From Nanobdellota archaeon (GTDB taxonomy: Archaea > Nanobdellota > Nanobdellia > Pacearchaeales > GW2011-AR1): DNA of 63,005 nucleotides. Shown here piece by piece: positions 22,257 through 61,984 of the stretch. The translations under genes were made by a program, and so were the position numbers. Each line of letters begins with the position of its first letter. Positions within the stretch are counted from its first letter, which is position 1. Below the pieces are notes generated by a model. It did no database searches. It saw only the letters and a list, made by a program, of their open reading frames with translations, and was not told the origin of the DNA. The DNA lies in contig JADFNI010000001.1 of assembly GCA_022563455.1 (NCBI GenBank), forward strand, positions 1 through 63,005. The letters are read 5' to 3'.

Positions 22257-23624
22257 ATGGCTCTTAGAGATTTATTAAAGAACTTGCCTGAAGTAAGAGG
22301 TCCTACTGAAAAGAAAGTTAGTTTTAATGTTAAATTAAAATGGACATTGATTATTCTTGTTGCTTATTTTGTCTTGTCTAATATTCCTCTTTTTGGCATT
22401 AGTGAAGGCTCACTTTCTCGTTTTGAATATTTGGCAATTTTACTTGGAACTTCATTTGGCTCAATTATTACGCTTGGGATTGGTCCTATTGTTATGTCGT
22501 CTATTATCTTGCAACTTTTAAAAGGTGCTCAAATTTTGAATGTTGATACCAATACTTTGGAAGGAAAACGATTTTTTCAAGGGTTGCAGAAACTTTTGGC
22601 ATTTGCATTTGTTGTTTTTGAATCGATTGTTTATGTTCTTATGAATGGGATTGCCGCACTAGAAGGGTTTGCCGGACTTGTTATTTTTCAACTTATTCTA
22701 GGAGGGATCTTGATTTTATTAATGGATGAAGTTATTCAGAAATGGGGCTTTGGTAGTGGAGTATCTCTATTCATTGCTGCAGGAATTGGATGGAGACTTT
22801 TCGCCCAGTTATTTCAGTTTATTGGACCTGAAGGAACTCTTGCCCCAATTGGGAAAGTTCTTGCATTTGTAGCCTCAGTTATAGTTGCTGATGGACGAGG
22901 GGCTATGGCCGCATTGTTTCCAATAATTGTTACGGCCCTTTTGTTTTTGGCTGTTGTTTTTGCACAGAGTTTGAAGGTAGAAATTCCACTAGCGTTTGAT
23001 CGAGTCCGAGGACATTCAGTTAAATGGCCATTGCAATTCTTTTATGCAGGAGTTATTCCAGTTATTTTAGTTTCTGCACTTACGGCCAACTTGCAGTTGT
23101 TTGCGTCTCTTATTCAAAATTGGGCTGGAGGGGCAACGTTTCTTGGAGGATTTAGCAGTGGTGGACTGGCCATATCCGGACTAGCATTTTGGATTGGTTC
23201 AACTCCAATATTGGATGCTGCAATTAACGGAACATTTAGGTTGATTTATATTCCTCAATCATTTTTTCATATAATATTTTATGTATTCTTCTCAGTTTTA
23301 TTTTCTTTCTTTTGGGTGAATACGTCAGGAATGGACGCTAGAAGTCAAGCAAATAAGATTGTTAATAGTGGTATGAGTATGCCTGGATTTAGAAAGGATG
23401 AAAGAGTTTTGGAATCTATTTTGAAGAGATATGTTGGACCTTTGACTGTCATGGGTGGTGCTGCTATTGGACTGCTCGCGTCAGTTGCAGATTTACTTGG
23501 AGCACTTGTGGGTGGAACTGCAATTCTTTTAGCGATTATGATATTGTATCAGTTATATCAAAACATTGCACAACAGCATGCAGTTGATATGAATCCTGCA
23601 CTTAAGGGATTTTTCGGTGCATAA
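22257..23624 (+). CDS. secY: Preprotein translocase subunit SecY
   Basis: A 10-TM protein at the canonical position after L15. The N-terminus has the ..LPEV..P..KVSF..KL.WT pattern. Confidence 0.95.
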   Translation: MALRDLLKNLPEVRGPTEKKVSFNVKLKWTLIILVAYFVLSNIPLFGISEGSLSRFEYLAILLGTSFGSIITLGIGPIVMSSIILQLLKGAQILNVDTNTLEGKRFFQGLQKLLAFAFVVFESIVYVLMNGIAALEGFAGLVIFQLILGGILILLMDEVIQKWGFGSGVSLFIAAGIGWRLFAQLFQFIGPEGTLAPIGKVLAFVASVIVADGRGAMAALFPIIVTALLFLAVVFAQSLKVEIPLAFDRVRGHSVKWPLQFFYAGVIPVILVSALTANLQLFASLIQNWAGGATFLGGFSSGGLAISGLAFWIGSTPILDAAINGTFRLIYIPQSFFHIIFYVFFSVLFSFFWVNTSGMDARSQANKIVNSGMSMPGFRKDERVLESILKRYVGPLTVMGGAAIGLLASVADLLGALVGGTAILLAIMILYQLYQNIAQQHAVDMNPALKGFFGA

Positions 23625-23722
23625 AATCCCATGAATAAAGTCATAAAGACTTTCTAAAGGGATTTTTCGGTGCATAAAATCCCATGAATAAAGTCATAAA
23701 GACTTTCTAAAGGGATTCTTTG
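23604..23722. repeat. 53-nt tandem repeat, ~2.2 copies, starting inside the last 7 codons of secY
   Basis: AAGGGATTTTTCGGTGCATAAAATCCCATGAATAAAGTCATAAAGACTTTCTA occurs exactly at 23604 and 23657. A diverged partial third copy starts at 23710. Each unit contains the hairpins GGGATTTT/AAAATCCC and AAAGTC/GACTTT. Confidence 0.85.
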
Positions 23723-23760
23723 GGGCGAAGTATTAAAAAGGATGTTTTGTTATTTGCTTA

Positions 23761-24156
23761 ATGGGAGTTGTTGAATTAATTAATTTATATCCGCTGTATT
23801 CTCTTGCTGGTATTTCAGTTATAGTTACTCTTATCTCTACTATTCTTCAAAAGAAGCTTACTGATCAGGAGCATTTAAAACATTTGAAGCAAAGGCAGAA
23901 AGAGATTCAAAAAGAACTTAAGAATTGTAAGGATGATTGTTTGATGAAAGAACTTAATTCTGAGCTCCTTAGCCTTACTGGACTTATGTTTAAGTCTTCG
24001 ATGAAACCAATTTTTGTTACGATTGTTCCATTTATTCTTTTATTTACCTGGCTTAGGGGAATTTATACACCTATTATTAGTGGGTGGATTTGGTGGTATT
24101 TAGGATTTAGTATGGGATCTAGCATTGCTCTTAGAAAAATTTTTAATGTGGCTTAG
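23761..24156 (+). CDS. DUF106/EMC3-like membrane protein (archaeal YidC/Oxa1-like insertase)
   Basis: The topology is TM, a charged coiled segment (KKLTDQEHLKHLKQRQKEIQKELK), MFKSSMKP, then 2 TM. The location downstream of secY matches Methanocaldococcus MJ0480-type genes. Confidence 0.65.
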   Translation: MGVVELINLYPLYSLAGISVIVTLISTILQKKLTDQEHLKHLKQRQKEIQKELKNCKDDCLMKELNSELLSLTGLMFKSSMKPIFVTIVPFILLFTWLRGIYTPIISGWIWWYLGFSMGSSIALRKIFNVA

Positions 24157-24209: not shown

Positions 24210-25064
24210 ATGATTGAACTATTTATAAAGGCAAAAAGGGCTGAGAGACATCCTTGGGAACTGTTTTTTATTGGTGCTTTTTGGGCCTCGGTTGCTCTTC
24301 TTCTTGTAACTTTTTTCTTTGGAAATGATTCTATTTTGAAAGAGGGTAGCGGACTTTTAGTTGTAATATTCACTGTGATTTCTTGCCTCCCTTTTATGTA
24401 TTATATTATAAAACTTGAAGAAGGAAAGGACGTCGAGATTGATGACTCTGGGAGGCTCATTAAAGAACACTCTAAGGCAATTCATGCTTTGATATGGATG
24501 TTTTTAGGATTCGTAGTCGCATTTTCTTTTTGGTATATGGTTTTACCTGAACAAGCTGCACAAAATTTCAATTTTCAAATAAAAACTTTTTGTGCAATTA
24601 ACAGTCCATCAAATTACAACTATTGTTTGGATCAGCATGGAATTCCAATAACGACTGGGGCAGTTACTGGAACCAATGCAGTGTTCGCAATTTTTGCAAA
24701 TAATATATCTGTCCTTATTTTTACTATTGTATTTTCTTTGGTTTTTGGCGCGGGTGCTATTTTCATTTTAGTTTGGAATGCGTCAGTTATTGCTGCAGCT
24801 ATTGGAATTTTTGCTAAAGGAGAACTTGTGGATCTTCCACTTGGGCTCCTTAGATATATGTTTCACGGGATACCGGAGATTGGGGCCTATTTTATAGGAG
24901 CTCTTGCTGGAGGAATAATATCTGTAGCAGTTATTAGAAAGGATCTTCGAGGAGAAGGAGCTTGGAAGATACTGCAAGATTCACTCACATTAATGATCAT
25001 CGCTATTGTTGTTTTGATGGTCGCAGCTTTGATGGAAGTTTATCTTACTCCCTTGATGTTTTAG
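24210..25064 (+). CDS. SpoIIM/DUF95-family integral membrane protein
   Basis: The IFANNISVLIF..., VWNASVIAAAIG and HGIPEIGAYFIGALAG motifs are typical of DUF95. Confidence 0.65.
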   Translation: MIELFIKAKRAERHPWELFFIGAFWASVALLLVTFFFGNDSILKEGSGLLVVIFTVISCLPFMYYIIKLEEGKDVEIDDSGRLIKEHSKAIHALIWMFLGFVVAFSFWYMVLPEQAAQNFNFQIKTFCAINSPSNYNYCLDQHGIPITTGAVTGTNAVFAIFANNISVLIFTIVFSLVFGAGAIFILVWNASVIAAAIGIFAKGELVDLPLGLLRYMFHGIPEIGAYFIGALAGGIISVAVIRKDLRGEGAWKILQDSLTLMIIAIVVLMVAALMEVYLTPLMF

Positions 25065-25158
25065 TTAGTTTCCTGATTCGATCAAAGATCTCATGTAAAA
25101 AAAATCTTGAGATTTTTTCTGATGGAAGTTTATCTTACTCCTTTGATGTTTTAGTTAG
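25030..25158. repeat. 39-nt direct repeat of the DUF95 gene 3' end (25030-25068 and 25120-25158, 1 mismatch) flanking a 51-nt insert
   Basis: TGATGGAAGTTTATCTTACTCC(C/T)TTGATGTTTTAGTTAG occurs twice with a 90-nt period. The insert carries an AAAAAATC-TTGA-GATTTTTT hairpin followed by CTGATGG. Confidence 0.85.
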
Positions 25159-25188
25159 ATTTTTAAGTGAGAAAAATTAGAATAGATT

Positions 25189-26181
25189 ATGCACTATTTA
25201 TTGTTGATCTCTGTAGTTGTTAGTTTTGTTTTGGCAGCAGGAACTCTTCCATATTGGATTCGTAAATGCCAAAGTATTGGCCTTCTTTGGGAAGATATGA
25301 ATAAGAAAGGACATCCTAAAAATGTTGCGGCTAGTGGAGGAATTGTGGTTGTCATGGCGTTTATCCTTGGTGTTTTTACATATGTTGCTCTTAAAACTTT
25401 TCTTTTTGGAGGAACTGTTCGTGCTCTTGAAATATTTTCTCTTTTAAGTATGGTTTTAATTATTGGGTTAATTGGTCTTGTAGATGATTTACTTGGGTGG
25501 AGAAATGGCGGACTTTCAAATAGATTTAGGCTTCTTTTAGCACTCATTGCTTCAATTCCTTTAGTTGTTATTAATGCGGGGGTCCATACAATTGCGCTTC
25601 CTTTTTTTGGAGCTATTAATTTTGGAATACTTTATCCTCTTTTTTTAATTCCGATTGGTGTTGCTGGAGCAGCTACAACTTATAATTTTTTAGCAGGATA
25701 TAATGGTCTTGAAGCTGGACAAGGAATTTTAATTTTATCTTTTTTATCTTTTGTCGCATATTCTACTGGTTCACCTTGGCTTGCAATAATTAGTTTATGT
25801 ATGGTTGCTTCTCTTCTTGCATTTTATATATACAATAAATATCCTGCAAAAGTTTTTCCAGGAGACTCCCTAACTTATTCAATTGGAGCTTTAATTGCGG
25901 GTATGGCAATCCTTGGAAATTTTGAAAGAATCGCAATTGTTGTATTTATTCCTTATATTCTAGAAGTTATTTTAAAAGTCAGAGGCAAATTGAAAAAACA
26001 TTCTTTCGCAAAAATAGACTCTAAGGGAAATTTGAAGATGCCTTATCCAAAAGTATATGGACTTGAACATTTAGCTATTGGTGTTTTAAATAAGTTTGGA
26101 AAAGCTACCGAAAAGGGAGTTGTTTACCTTATTTATTTAATTCAGATAGTTTTCATATTGGTTGGATTTTCTATGTTGTAA
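25189..26181 (+). CDS. aglH: UDP-GlcNAc:dolichyl-phosphate GlcNAc-1-phosphate transferase (GT4/MraY-WecA superfamily, AglH-like)
   Basis: A polytopic protein with VDDLLGWRNG and NFLAGYNGLEAGQG motifs. It is adjacent to AglB. Confidence 0.75.
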   Translation: MHYLLLISVVVSFVLAAGTLPYWIRKCQSIGLLWEDMNKKGHPKNVAASGGIVVVMAFILGVFTYVALKTFLFGGTVRALEIFSLLSMVLIIGLIGLVDDLLGWRNGGLSNRFRLLLALIASIPLVVINAGVHTIALPFFGAINFGILYPLFLIPIGVAGAATTYNFLAGYNGLEAGQGILILSFLSFVAYSTGSPWLAIISLCMVASLLAFYIYNKYPAKVFPGDSLTYSIGALIAGMAILGNFERIAIVVFIPYILEVILKVRGKLKKHSFAKIDSKGNLKMPYPKVYGLEHLAIGVLNKFGKATEKGVVYLIYLIQIVFILVGFSML

Positions 26182-42329: not shown

Positions 42330-44813
42330 TTATCTAAGAGTTATAAAATTAACCCCCTTGTCCACTAATTCTTGATTATTCTTTTTAATTTCTTCTGCAA
42401 AATTCCATGCAAGAATTAGTATGTTATCAGGAATATCTTCAGAGAAATTTTTTGGTCTTATAGGAATATTAACTATTGGAATAAACTTTCCATGTTTTAA
42501 TTTATTATCTTCTATTATATAGTCTATTTTTGAATCATCTATTCCAAAATAGTTTAAAACTGTTGTTGCTTTTGCTGGAGCACCATAACCTACAATTGAA
42601 CCTTTTAGACTAGAGATGTCTTCTGAGGCTTTCTTCTTTAAAGCTTCAACTCTTCTAGCAAATAATTTATACGTGTGGTAATTTTTTAGACCAAATTCTT
42701 CTTCTTCTTTCATAAATTTTATTACAGATTCCTCAGCTTCACCACTCCTTTTAATATATACTCTGATGGACCCTCCATGGGTATCAATGTGTTCTACATT
42801 AATTATTTTCATGTTTTGTCTCTCAAAAAAATTATTAAGTGAGGTAACTGACCAATAAGAGACATGTTCATGATAAATATTATCAAAAGTTAAATCTCTT
42901 AAGGTATCTAAAAGGTATTGTACTTCTATTATAAACGTTCCATCCTCTTTTAATAATTTTTTAACTGTATCTGTAATTGTCTTTATTTTATCCGTATGTG
43001 CAAAAACATTAAATGCAGTTATGATATCTGCCTTTTTATCAGTTTTGTTTACAACTGATTCGTCAAAATAGGAATTAAGGGTTCTTATTCCATTTTCATT
43101 TGCTAATTCTGAGATATTTTTAGCAGGCTCTATTCCTAAAATTTCTACATTTTTCTCTTTTAATGGTTTTAAGAAAATTCCGTCATTGCTTCCAACATCA
43201 ATTACAAATCCAGGATTATATTTCTCTACAATTTGTTCTGATAATTTTCTAAAATGATCCCTAAATGATTTAGTTGTTGAAGAAACATAAAGATAATTAT
43301 CAAATAGCTTCTCTGGAGGTACTGTGTAGGAAAGTTGACAGTAATGACATTTATCACAATAATTCATTTCTAATGGAAATGTTTCAGCCTTTGTTTTCGA
43401 ATCTAATAAATTATTAGCTAAGGGGGAATTTCCCAAGGATATGACTTTTTTCAGATTAGTGTTGTCACATATTCTGCAACTAATTTTGTAGTTGTTAAAA
43501 AGGTTTTCTCTTTCCTCTTCACTTACTAATTGATATGGAATCGTATGTTTCCCAAAATTCTCATGTTCTCTTTCTCCATTAACTAAATTTAAGAATAATG
43601 AATCTTCTAAGAATACCATTGTATGTGCAACATTAGGGGTAGTTACGACTACATCTCCTGCCTGAACAAGGTGAGTTTGTACGATTGAATTTTTTTCTTT
43701 TAAATCCTTAAATACGCTTATAAATTTTCCACTAATTAAGAGTACTTTTTGTTCCTGTATTGGATGATAATGATTTGCCCTCATAGTTCCTGCCTTGGAA
43801 GTAATCCACCCTATCCAGTTAATATGTCCTGGTAATTCATAATTTTTTATTATTCCCCTATCATCCTCAAATCCTTTGTCACTTTTAATAATATATTCTA
43901 ATTCCGTTTTATTTTTCCATTTATTTATTATAGATTTTAATTCTTCTTCTATTTTATACTTAAATTTAAATCCAGTGTCCAATAATTTTTTATTGGATAA
44001 AGTGTATCCTAAGTTTGGAATCTCATCGTCTGTTAAATTTAGTTGTATGTTTGACGCCTCCCTACATATTTCAGCAACTTCTTTCACTGTTTTGTTTTGG
44101 CTTACAATATTAAAAATTTCATTGTATATTTTGGATTCTGCAAGAAATTTTAAACATCTAGCTGTATCTTTTACACAACATAGCGGCTTATAATTTGCTC
44201 CTCCAGAAAATAATTTTAGATTCTTTCCCTGAGAGGCCATCTTTGAAAAAAGATTAGGCATTATATTTAATCTCATCGAAAGTCCATATCCATAATTTGT
44301 CGATAGTCTACAAATAATGTACTTTTTTCCACTTGCAACTAAATCTTTTTCTGTTTGTAATTTTCCAGATGAATATGTTAGAATGGGAGATGGTGAAGTT
44401 TCTTCAGTTATATTTAGTGTAGTTTTTTTTAACCCTTCAAAAATAACATGGGATGAAGGAAAGATAATTTTGCAATTGTCAGATATTGAATTTATTATAT
44501 TGATAGATCCTTCTTCCCCTATACCCTTAATTTCAAGTTCCCTTTCTTTATTTTCTTCACTAGTCAGGTGAGCTACATCAGTAACCCCAGCTAAGTGATA
44601 AACAATATCTGCACCCCTTAGAGAATTTTTTAATAAGTCTTTATTCATAATATCTCCTTCAATATAATCAATACCCCATTTTGTTAGCTCCCTTACGCAT
44701 TCAGGTATAAATCTCTTATCTAAAACTATAACCTCGTGAGTAGAATCTTTGTATAACTCGCATAATTGCATACCTATATATCCTAGTCCTCCTGTAATTA
44801 CTATTTTTACCAT
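42330..44813 (-). CDS. Tri-domain fusion: extended-SDR NAD-dependent epimerase/dehydratase + cupin (WxcM/RmlC-like) + zinc-ribbon sugar C-methyltransferase (TylCIII-like)
   Basis: The N-terminus is VITGGLGYIGMQL. The middle is FEDDRGIIKNY...RANHYHP. The C-terminus has CRICDN..L..V.SLGNSPLANNL...CDKCHYCQL followed by VIDVGSNDGIFL. Confidence 0.7.
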   Translation of the reverse strand: MVKIVITGGLGYIGMQLCELYKDSTHEVIVLDKRFIPECVRELTKWGIDYIEGDIMNKDLLKNSLRGADIVYHLAGVTDVAHLTSEENKERELEIKGIGEEGSINIINSISDNCKIIFPSSHVIFEGLKKTTLNITEETSPSPILTYSSGKLQTEKDLVASGKKYIICRLSTNYGYGLSMRLNIMPNLFSKMASQGKNLKLFSGGANYKPLCCVKDTARCLKFLAESKIYNEIFNIVSQNKTVKEVAEICREASNIQLNLTDDEIPNLGYTLSNKKLLDTGFKFKYKIEEELKSIINKWKNKTELEYIIKSDKGFEDDRGIIKNYELPGHINWIGWITSKAGTMRANHYHPIQEQKVLLISGKFISVFKDLKEKNSIVQTHLVQAGDVVVTTPNVAHTMVFLEDSLFLNLVNGEREHENFGKHTIPYQLVSEEERENLFNNYKISCRICDNTNLKKVISLGNSPLANNLLDSKTKAETFPLEMNYCDKCHYCQLSYTVPPEKLFDNYLYVSSTTKSFRDHFRKLSEQIVEKYNPGFVIDVGSNDGIFLKPLKEKNVEILGIEPAKNISELANENGIRTLNSYFDESVVNKTDKKADIITAFNVFAHTDKIKTITDTVKKLLKEDGTFIIEVQYLLDTLRDLTFDNIYHEHVSYWSVTSLNNFFERQNMKIINVEHIDTHGGSIRVYIKRSGEAEESVIKFMKEEEEFGLKNYHTYKLFARRVEALKKKASEDISSLKGSIVGYGAPAKATTVLNYFGIDDSKIDYIIEDNKLKHGKFIPIVNIPIRPKNFSEDIPDNILILAWNFAEEIKKNNQELVDKGVNFITLR

Positions 44814-61511: not shown

Positions 61512-61654
61512 TTTCGGACTCGAAGGTTCGATTCCATTATTTGCTTAGATGCGCGGACTGCTCAAGATCATCTCTTTGTTTATGTTTATTTTATCAAAGA
61601 GTTAATCTTTCGGACTCGAAGGTTCGATTCCATTATTTGCTTAGATGCGCGGAC
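61512..61654. repeat. 47-nt direct repeat (61512-61558 and 61608-61654) covering the tRNA-Gly 3' end plus 38 nt of trailer
   Basis: TTTCGGACTCGAAGGTTCGATTCCATTATTTGCTTAGATGCGCGGAC occurs twice exactly with a 96-nt period. The 49-nt spacer holds the CTCTTTG(61572-61578)/CAAAGAG(61595-61601) hairpin. Confidence 0.85.
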
Positions 61655-61865: not shown

Positions 61866-61984
61866 ATGAGGGAAGGAGGATTCTGCTCACATTTACGTCT
61901 TGAGATTTTTATAATTGTTCAAAACCTAAACGATCGCCCCCGTAACGGGTGTTCTCATTCTTTCTCATGAGGGAAGGAGGATTC
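61865..61984. repeat. 19-nt direct repeat (61865-61883 and 61966-61984) of the tRNA-Leu 3' end, the distal copy abutting the tRNA-Arg 5' end
   Basis: CATGAGGGAAGGAGGATTC occurs twice exactly with a 101-nt period. Confidence 0.8.

Follow-up and report, generated by a model that had tools for sequence, protein, structure and literature searches.

A copy of the R1 start-codon repeat between duplicated tails of a SpoIIM-like gene in a Nanobdellota archaeon

Introduction

The genomes of DPANN archaea are tiny (about 1 Mb) and regarded as poor in mobile elements, and diversity-generating retroelements (DGRs), with their pairs of variable and template repeats (VR/TR), are common among these archaea. 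Microhomology-mediated template switching, which leaves templated insertions, is known from bacteria and eukaryotes as fork stalling and template switching/microhomology-mediated break-induced replication (FoSTeS/MMBIR) and as polymerase-theta-type end joining; to our knowledge, it has not been shown experimentally in archaea of the group treated here. The Rickettsia palindromic elements (RPEs), which Ogata et al. are said to have described in 2000, are reportedly selfish repeats tolerated inside expressed genes. Here we describe a family of ~86-nt start-codon mini-cistron elements, named R1, and one copy of it that lies between two copies of the tail of a SpoIIM-like membrane-protein gene in a Nanobdellota archaeon. 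The DNA analysed (the window) comprises 63,005 nt, positions 1 to 63,005 of contig JADFNI010000001.1 of assembly GCA_022563455.1. A full-text search of the literature found no description of such an element; R1 is an undescribed member of the small non-autonomous repeats, found here at a non-canonical site. The insert at 25065-25121 is probably an old copy of this element at an internal ATG, tolerated through duplication of the gene tail and reshaped by conversion.

The genome of the window, G000, is a metagenome-assembled genome (MAG) of 974 kb in 74 contigs, with 33% G+C and 87% completeness, and the window is its contig C23. Other G labels denote genomes of the same genus, L labels the loci compared, and G000:Cn contig n of G000. 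The distribution of the element was counted over 49 genomes of this genus (Pacearchaeota-type DPANN), while the tail site was surveyed in 77 species-level genomes carrying the SpoIIM-like gene, a second tail being sought within 450 nt. The relatives have been deposited as Pacearchaeota, Woesearchaeota or Nanoarchaeota MAGs, and come from many studies and assemblers.

Results

The insert belongs to the R1 family. A covariance model built from ten other copies in G000, with the copy at the tail site left out, matched positions 25076-25125 (+), i.e. the core plus ATGG, with 34.8 bits and an E-value of 3.6e-10 (cmsearch, filters off), compared with 17 bits for the best unrelated match in the window. 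An earlier reading made from the DNA letters only (hereafter the sequence-only reading) had placed the insert in one family with the leader elements of aIF5A, L2 and L5, and this holds for what is a diverged member: the module at 25100-25125 agrees with the L5-leader copy at 22 of 26 positions, ends in CTGATGG as the aIF5A copy does, and has the described stem around the loop TTGA, with the arms AAAAAATC at 25099-25106 and GATTTTTT at 25111-25118 (+). On another contig of the same genome, the module has a match at 25 of 26 positions (G000:C31 7474-7499). The genome-wide search against a composition-matched background, which had been proposed along with the module, showed an excess over simulated genomes: with up to four mismatches, the 26-mer had three matches in the real genome and two in total in 20 order-1 Markov genomes (about 0.1 per genome). 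The 27-mer reached an E-value of 3.9e-5 by BLAST within G000, while an nhmmer profile seeded with six sequences did not, by itself, find the copy at E < 10. Among Rfam families, only tRNAs and 5S rRNA reached the gathering score in the window, and a search of 24900-25300 at E <= 1 returned only a chance CrcZ match of 12 bits. A 21-mer of the insert matched, by chance, only an unrelated GC-rich contig in a metagenome scan.

R1 units measure 83-90 nt from ATG to ATG (83-86 nt in the other G000 copies) and are composed of a 35-38-nt 5' part starting with ATG, hairpin 1 (triloop AAA or AGA), a linker, hairpin 2 and CT(G/A). Hairpin 2 takes the form CAAAAAC-loop-GTTTTTG, with an A5/T5 stem and a GGAG-like, purine-rich loop resembling a Shine-Dalgarno sequence. 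The 5' half of the insert (25068-25100, +) runs from GTTTCCTGATTCG through hairpin 1 (GATC AAA GATC, 25080-25090) to TCTCATGTAAAA, and its 3' half (25100-25121, +) holds hairpin 2 with the purine-rich loop, followed by CTG. The two-hairpin core is present and matches the model; hairpin 1 is degraded in the register of the model, yet the GATC-AAA-GATC hairpin occupies the same place. As in other R1 copies, the core ends in CT(G/A) right before ATG(G/A) (..TTTTTTCTG|ATGG, 25119-25125). This copy does not, however, stand directly before the start codon of a gene, the ATG that follows being Met275 of the SpoIIM-like tail. Nor does it have the usual mini-open reading frame (mini-ORF) of about 22-36 codons with a stop overlapping the next ATG: its 5' part is replaced by gene tail with a stop at 25062-25064, and the TGA of CTGATGG closes no ORF.

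The SpoIIM-like gene (former DUF95; 24210-25064, +; 284 aa; Pfam PF01944, E = 1.2e-15) ends in a tail, (L/I)(M/I)EVY(L/I/F)TP..F, that is conserved across the 77 related genomes. In G000, the 42 nt at 25030-25071 (TGATGGAAGTTTATCTTACTCCCTTGATGTTTTAGTTAGTTT) are repeated at 25120-25161 with two mismatches; over the shorter extent originally described, 25030-25068 and 25120-25158, the 39 nt have a single, synonymous difference (CCC versus CCT). The upstream copy, A1 (25030-25071, +), is the working gene tail and comprises the final 10 codons and the TAG stop (25062-25064) plus 7 nt. The downstream copy, A2 (25120-25161, +), contains an ORF at 25122-25154 encoding MEVYLTPLMF*, in agreement with the description of a 10-codon ORF that opens at the ATGG after the module and is the duplicated gene end. 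The 51 nt given for the insert have to be corrected: according to where the repeat is bounded, its size is 48 nt between the two copies or 57 nt from the stop codon to the ATG. From the ATG of A1 to that of A2 (25032 to 25122) the distance is 90 nt, within the range of R1 units. Insert-free genomes have a single tail followed by ..TAGA.TTTTAAG.., and the G000 sequence past A2, which differs from that past A1, joins the same downstream sequence seamlessly. Since the sequence after A2 is the one that follows the single tail in insert-free relatives, the arrangement is A-B-A and not an A-B-A-B tandem.

The R1 family as a whole behaves as a mobile or duplicative cassette, as had been suggested, with patchy copy numbers, tandem arrays, lineage-specific subtypes and clean filled and empty sites. 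It is present in 22 of the 49 genomes of the genus, with 0-28 copies each (13 in G000, 5 in G005 and 16 in G051), usually exactly on the start codon of a gene and always co-directional with it. Twelve clear copies were found by nhmmer in G000, including those before aIF5A, L2, L5 and a thermosome gene, and some copies form tandem arrays of three. Six of the 15 modelled pairs in the hairpins show compensatory changes. The copy before L2 (11900-11985, +) is a canonical 86-nt unit with a 28-codon mini-ORF and a TAATG stop/start overlap, and the one before L5 (16883-16965, +) a canonical unit of 83 nt. Compared with empty sites, the insertions amount to a net 86 nt at L2 (empty in G021 and G011), at aIF5A (291-376, +; empty in G017, G021 and G009) and in G005:C7 versus the empty G018:C31, where the element sits on the ATG with ATG at both ends; ordinary insertions duplicate only this ATG. 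Two subfamilies carry in-frame additions inside the core, of 24 nt in G043 (L063-L070), by which the mini-ORF gains HPVGDLVI, and of 12 nt in G051 (L028, L074 and L077; GNKS), which hints that the frame of the mini-ORF may be kept.

Long duplications occur at about 7 of 74 R1 copies. In the 86-nt unit before aIF5A, the first 21 nt equal the gene start, G000-specific substitutions included, and because the net insertion is 86 nt in spite of this copy, the duplication replaces element sequence in register and adds no target duplication. Over the 74 copies, the mini-ORF start matched the start of its own downstream gene at a mean of 8.73 of 18 positions, versus 7.81 ± 0.17 when paired with the starts of other genes, and 0 of 5000 permutations reached the observed value; the excess is driven by about seven copies with 16-18 of 18 identities.

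These duplications bear on a SINE-like (short interspersed nuclear element-like) retroposition, in which the ..CUGAUGG end of the element RNA would anneal to a nicked CCAT of the target and prime reverse transcription, staggered second-strand cleavage would yield variable duplications from ATGG, and incomplete copying would yield 5'-truncated elements. Such a process would fit the precise 3' and variable 5' junctions as well as duplications of 3 to ~50 nt that always start at ATG, and reverse transcriptases are present in 19 of the 49 genomes. We nevertheless consider it improbable, as the enzyme (PF00078) was not found in G000 (87% complete), G005 or G051 despite their 13, 5 and 16 copies (genomes 69-92% complete), it occurs in 8 of 22 element-bearing versus 11 of 27 element-free genomes, and the net 86 nt at aIF5A fit replacement rather than addition.

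Two further observations concern the family. The mini-ORF consensus start (M-I-N/H-K-I-x-E-A, ATGATAAATAAAATATTGGAGGCAGG) resembles the N-terminus of aIF5A in the genus (M-V-A-K-V-I-E-A, ATGGTAGCAAAAGTTATTGAAGCG), and the family may have originated at the aIF5A start. A weak match to the R1 model at 43373-43424 of the window (17.1 bits, E = 0.0013) is possibly another decayed copy.

The intergenic region was also compared across relatives, as the sequence-only reading had proposed, and the same tail-insert-tail arrangement was found at the same ATG in other assemblies. Close relatives were picked from the same 90% protein cluster or at 87% identity; four of them (L178, L179, L186 and L187), all from other metagenome assemblies, are 87-90+% identical in amino acids and ~80% identical in the DNA of the gene. 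L178 and L179 show A1-insert-A2 at the same ATG. In L186 (JGI 3300028583) and L187 (a TARA scaffold), the insert starts right after the stop codon with the same motif, and the contigs end inside it, 33-39 nt past the SpoIIM-like stop, so that short-read assembly apparently fails at the element or at the tail repeat. L176 and L177 resemble a deletion derivative. In the wider survey, a second tail was found in 5 of the 77 genomes, plus G000. The tail of L121 (G005) matches at 33 of 36 positions and its insert reaches 38.9 bits with the R1 model; for L131 (G043) the values are 32 of 36 and 32.8 bits. The sister pair L102 and L106 (= G022) shares the same decayed insert, and L118 has a decayed tail copy with a non-R1 insert; none of these three gave an R1 model match at E <= 1. 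Independent assemblies and lineages thereby show the same architecture at this one ATG, at least three of the lineages (G005, G043 and L102/L106) being more distant, and the locus is old and partly conserved rather than a fresh insertion.

It could be argued that the locus is an assembly artefact or an unrelated local tandem duplication, and its likeness to the leader elements a chance product of AT-rich sequence: G000 is a MAG assembled from short reads, the reads are longer than the 90-nt spacing of the repeats, the insert is where two related contigs break off, and the small-seed nhmmer profile missed the copy. This can be set aside with near confidence, given homologous tail-insert-tail structures in assemblies from different studies and assemblers, with diverged copies and shared junctions, the E-value of the covariance model and the simulation control in agreement with it, and the unlike sequences past A1 and A2, which do not make a simple tandem.

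The history of the site within the genus points to more than one event. G005 is filled while its sister G018 is empty (two-gene tree, support 98/97), and G000 clusters with G021, a genome without an R1 insert at the tail site, although the resolution of the tree is weak; with this same limit, the placements speak against the tail-site copies forming one clade. The G043 copy carries the G043-specific 24-nt linker insertion and a second, decayed core lies behind its A2, which means that this lineage was hit, or converted, again. A different A-B-A arrangement occupies the spacer between the SpoIIM-like gene and the next gene, a glycosyltransferase family 4 (GT4) gene, in G014 (L006/L015, G014:C2): ~57 nt comprising the gene end, the promoter and the first GT4 codons are duplicated around a ~230-nt insert that includes a truncated GT4 start, the duplication amounting to ~290 nt. 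The SpoIIM-GT4 junction is a hotspot.

The G000 insert is a mosaic, with two halves that differ in their conservation. Between G000 and L178, 20% of all positions and 46% of third codon positions differ in the gene, while only 3 of 33 positions are changed in the insert's 5' half (25068-25100; 30/33 identical; P ~9e-6 versus third positions), and two of the three changes keep hairpin 1 paired. Over five assemblies, the stem of hairpin 1 varies in sequence while pairing is kept, and all three pairs predicted by RNAalifold show compensatory changes. The 5' half and hairpin 1 are thus conserved, the former being either under constraint or recently exchanged. The 3' half (25100-25121), in contrast, is identical to the paralogue at G000:C31 7474-7499 at 21 of 22 positions and has only AAAATC in common with the orthologous inserts in L178 and L179. 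In L178, L179, L102 and L106, the insert runs on past ...GTAAAATC as a copy of pre-tail gene codons (..GGTTGCTGCGGCTTTG|ATGG), so that A2 extends upstream and the 3' strand of hairpin 2 is gone; unlike these, G000 has a complete hairpin 2 plus CTG. The simplest reading is that the 3' half in G000 would be a recent patch from the paralogue, copied between AAAATC and TGATGG. In L102 and L106, some A1 and A2 states co-vary within a genome. Together with the G000 patch and the replacement at aIF5A, this argues for short-tract conversion or template switching as a recurring process.

The conserved 5' half also lends itself to an explanation that may rival or complement the proposed one, namely that the insert and A2 have been exapted and now serve the host as a structured RNA or DNA element in the 3' untranslated region (UTR) of the SpoIIM-like gene. 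Hairpin 2 with the T6 run would then act as a terminator or processing signal, and translation of A2 would restore ancestral ribosome termination 34 nt before the GT4 start. In favour of such a role, conservation of the 5' half far exceeds that of synonymous sites, and hairpin 1 is kept by compensatory changes in the five assemblies. The ATG, frame and stop of A2 are kept in G000, L178, G005, G043, L102 and L106, with mostly synonymous differences; those between A1 and A2 of L102 are all synonymous, and those between the A2 copies of L102 and L106 fall at third positions in five of five cases. The A2 stop is 34 nt away from the GT4 ATG, which is also the stop-to-ATG distance in several insert-free relatives. 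On the other hand, the module is absent from most genomes of the genus, A2 shows decay in L179 (P>L, M>I) and L118, the 3' half is not conserved and exists in two different versions, and repeated conversion from a selected A1 can mimic purifying selection on A2. Moreover, the promoter-like TTTTAAG motif of GT4 lies downstream of A2, so that A2 need not lie on the GT4 transcript. On balance, an exapted module appears unlikely as the principal explanation, though it is the foremost of the rivals or complements to it.

The order of repeat, stop, hairpin and repeat further recalls recoding, in which the insert would be passed over, either through translational bypass of the T4 gene 60 kind or by splicing as an archaeal intron, with A2 as the expressed tail. 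In L102 and L106, changes in the downstream copy are all synonymous, whereas the upstream one has L>F and M>I. Yet every genome has a complete A1 that includes a stop, and bypass is therefore not needed; the non-conservative changes of L179 fall in A2, no bulge-helix-bulge motif is evident, and the frame of the insert is not conserved between G000 and L178 and contains stops. These comparisons make recoding or splicing highly improbable. Read-through of the stop codon into the insert was rejected as well, its frame being open in L178 and shifted and closed in G000 and L179. A kink-turn (bound by L7Ae) at the GCGGAUC...GCUGAUGG flanks of hairpin 2 was discarded because the GA dinucleotides are not conserved over 84 distinct copies; in some subfamilies, these flank columns extend hairpin 2.

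The SpoIIM-like gene lies directly past the ribosomal-protein/SecY cluster and an EMC3/YidC-like gene (23761-24156); a protein look-up found no record of its exact product in G000. It is followed by the GT4 gene (MraY/AglH-like; 25189-26181, +; Pfam PF00953, E = 1.8e-32). About 25 nt upstream of the GT4 ATG, within 25160-25188, stands the TATA-like TTTTTAAG (25160-25167, +), likely the promoter of a leaderless GT4 transcript, and the TTTTAAG motif is kept at the same distance before the GT4 ATG in all relatives.

The sequence-only reading had further linked the leader elements to terminus duplications in general. The link stands for the tail locus and for aIF5A, and fails for the duplicated SecY and tRNA ends: no match to the R1 covariance model was found at the SecY end or at the tRNA-Gly, tRNA-Leu and tRNA-Ser ends in the window. 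As a general rule it fails also within the family, considering the ATG-only duplications of ordinary insertions and the small share of copies with long ones. The inserts at tRNA ends form a second, unrelated hairpin family (window 61559-61607 and 61884-61965; G000:C30 ~647-696 and 743-816). Those at tRNA-Gly and tRNA-Leu/Arg read TGCTCA..ATCATGTCTTTG-(AT-rich, TATA-like loop TTTTATAATTG)-CAAAGACCTAA, following the pattern TGCTCA..GTCTTTG-(TATA-like loop)-CAAAGAC-CTAA, and their stem varies by compensatory changes; this insert could be a promoter-bearing cassette for the next minus-strand tRNA. At the SecY 3' end (23601-23736), a 53-nt unit occurs twice, each time carrying ..LKGFFGA*, and a third, diverged copy, which encodes LKGFFGAKY* with synonymous differences, looks like the displaced original gene end. 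Genome-wide, G000 contains many more short-range direct repeats, their periods being 52-112 nt and several of them adjoining tRNA-like sequence (e.g. C34 10184-10499, C58 18887-19008, C16 8122-8236 and C36 6793-6940), and at most of its other A-B-A loci the inserts or units are unique in the genome.

Discussion

We propose that an R1 element came to occupy Met275 of the SpoIIM-like gene, an internal ATG located ten codons upstream of the stop, and that the element's own 5' part was replaced by the tail copy A1 with its own stop, by which the gene would survive, while A2, the original tail, remained downstream of the element as a free-standing 10-codon ORF. Short-tract gene conversion or polymerase template switching would account for the duplicated tail and for the later patching, with microhomologies at T(G/A)ATGG on one side and the TTTTAG or AAAATC runs on the other as anchors. 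The same process would homogenise the first mini-ORF codons with the downstream gene at other loci, and selection for an intact, highly conserved C-terminus would decide which products persist. Two routes can be envisaged, both of which use the observed microhomologies. In one, which is possible though short of an even chance, an ordinary insertion on the internal ATG replaced the C-terminus, and the 5' part of the element was then converted by the downstream tail under selection. In the other, to which we give the same tentative weight, a single event would have sufficed: the nascent strand left its template near the stop codon, copied an element elsewhere up to ..CT(G/A)ATGG and returned at the T(G/A)ATGG of the tail. 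What weight remains falls on something else. Short inverted fold-back fillers at the A1/insert junction (GTTGTT..AACAAC in G005, CTATTC-TGAC-GAATAG in L102/L106, and TGCTGCGAAT opposite ATTGCAGCA in G043) fit polymerase-driven repair, and would alternatively be terminator-like hairpins.

Several points weigh against this proposal. The mechanism of the tail duplication is unproven and no enzyme was identified; neither a Y1 transposase nor TnpB was found in G000, other transposase families not having been searched, and the presence of reverse transcriptase does not track the element. One ancient insertion followed by many precise losses is not cleanly separable from repeated insertion on a weakly resolved two-gene tree. 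The conserved 5' half and the intact A2 ORF fit poorly with a purely tolerated passenger and point to some function. The predicted stability of the hairpins is unremarkable against shuffled sequences (z = -0.5 for the tail-site copy and -1.2 for a canonical copy), and the G000 copy itself rests on one assembly together with the homologous structures elsewhere.

As an ~86-nt repeat active in part of one genus, R1 inserts exactly at start codons and supplies restart signals of its own. The SpoIIM-tail locus is an informative exception, with an element on an internal ATG, a site that was hit repeatedly, and short-tract conversion reshaping the element and its flanks. For annotation and assembly, such loci call for caution: they break contigs, yield spurious mini-ORFs and false duplicated gene ends, and may be mistaken for DGR repeats or attachment (att) sites. 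Should the conserved 5' half prove functional, the locus would illustrate the recruitment of a selfish insert as an intergenic RNA element. A more far-reaching and rather doubtful idea is that terminus duplications around hairpin inserts are the footprint of one undescribed, microhomology-anchored mode of copying DNA in reduced DPANN archaea, driven by a polymerase or by recombination and free of a dedicated transposase. It would spread expression-signal cassettes, i.e. R1 with its ribosome-binding hairpin and stop/start junction and the tRNA-end family with its TATA-like hairpin, the SpoIIM-tail cassette having been retained under selection as a structured intercistronic element whose 10-codon ORF is translated.

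Comparison with known systems

The tail site resembles the VR/TR pairs of DGRs in that a near-identical copy of a gene 3' end lies just downstream. It differs in its repeats of 33-50 nt, in differences that are C/T and synonymous instead of adenine-specific, and in its target, the SpoIIM-like protein being no variable ligand-binding protein. A DGR was rejected on these grounds: G000 (87% complete) has no PF00078 match, its repeat measures 42 nt compared with ~100 nt or more in DGRs, and the sole difference within the ORF is C/T. Integrative elements at att sites likewise flank foreign DNA with a direct repeat of a gene 3' end and leave the gene a complete end, whereas the insert at the tail site measures 48-85 nt, has no integrase and is flanked by a repeat whose length varies between lineages. 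With only 48 nt between the repeats and no integrase gene there, an att duplication was rejected; the three tyrosine recombinases of G000 all lie away from the locus.

Like MITEs (miniature inverted-repeat transposable elements), repetitive extragenic palindromic (REP) sequences, bacterial interspersed mosaic elements (BIMEs) and Correia-type elements, R1 is small, multi-copy and patchily distributed, with tandem arrays and lineage-specific subfamilies. It also shares with them clean filled and empty sites and, at ordinary insertions, a short fixed duplication (ATG). In contrast to them, it has no terminal inverted repeats and no Y1 or TnpB transposase was found for it, while it targets start codons, is co-directional with the gene and has a content resembling translation signals. 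Classification as a MITE was rejected, since the two ends of the unit, ATGATACAT.. and ..TTTCTAATG, form no inverted repeat and no cognate transposase was found among the Y1 and TnpB families searched in G000; an origin from IS200/IS605-type elements was rejected for want of these same two proteins.

Template switching and the tail site have in common an insert copied from elsewhere and flanked by a re-copied stretch of the target, with junctions at short identities (TGATGG, AAAATC and TTTTAG) and fold-back fillers in G005, L102/L106 and G043. Unlike the known template-switching systems, the tail site recurs at one place and with one element family, and no polymerase is implicated.

RPEs, finally, are like R1 short, hairpin-forming repeats of ~100 nt that are unevenly distributed among close relatives, leave the host gene expressible and have no known transposase of their own. 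The likeness drawn here is one of features. RPEs lie in frame inside ORFs and are translated within the protein, whereas R1 forms a separate mini-cistron at an ATG with a stop/start overlap, and at the SpoIIM-like gene it is tolerated by way of a duplicated tail.

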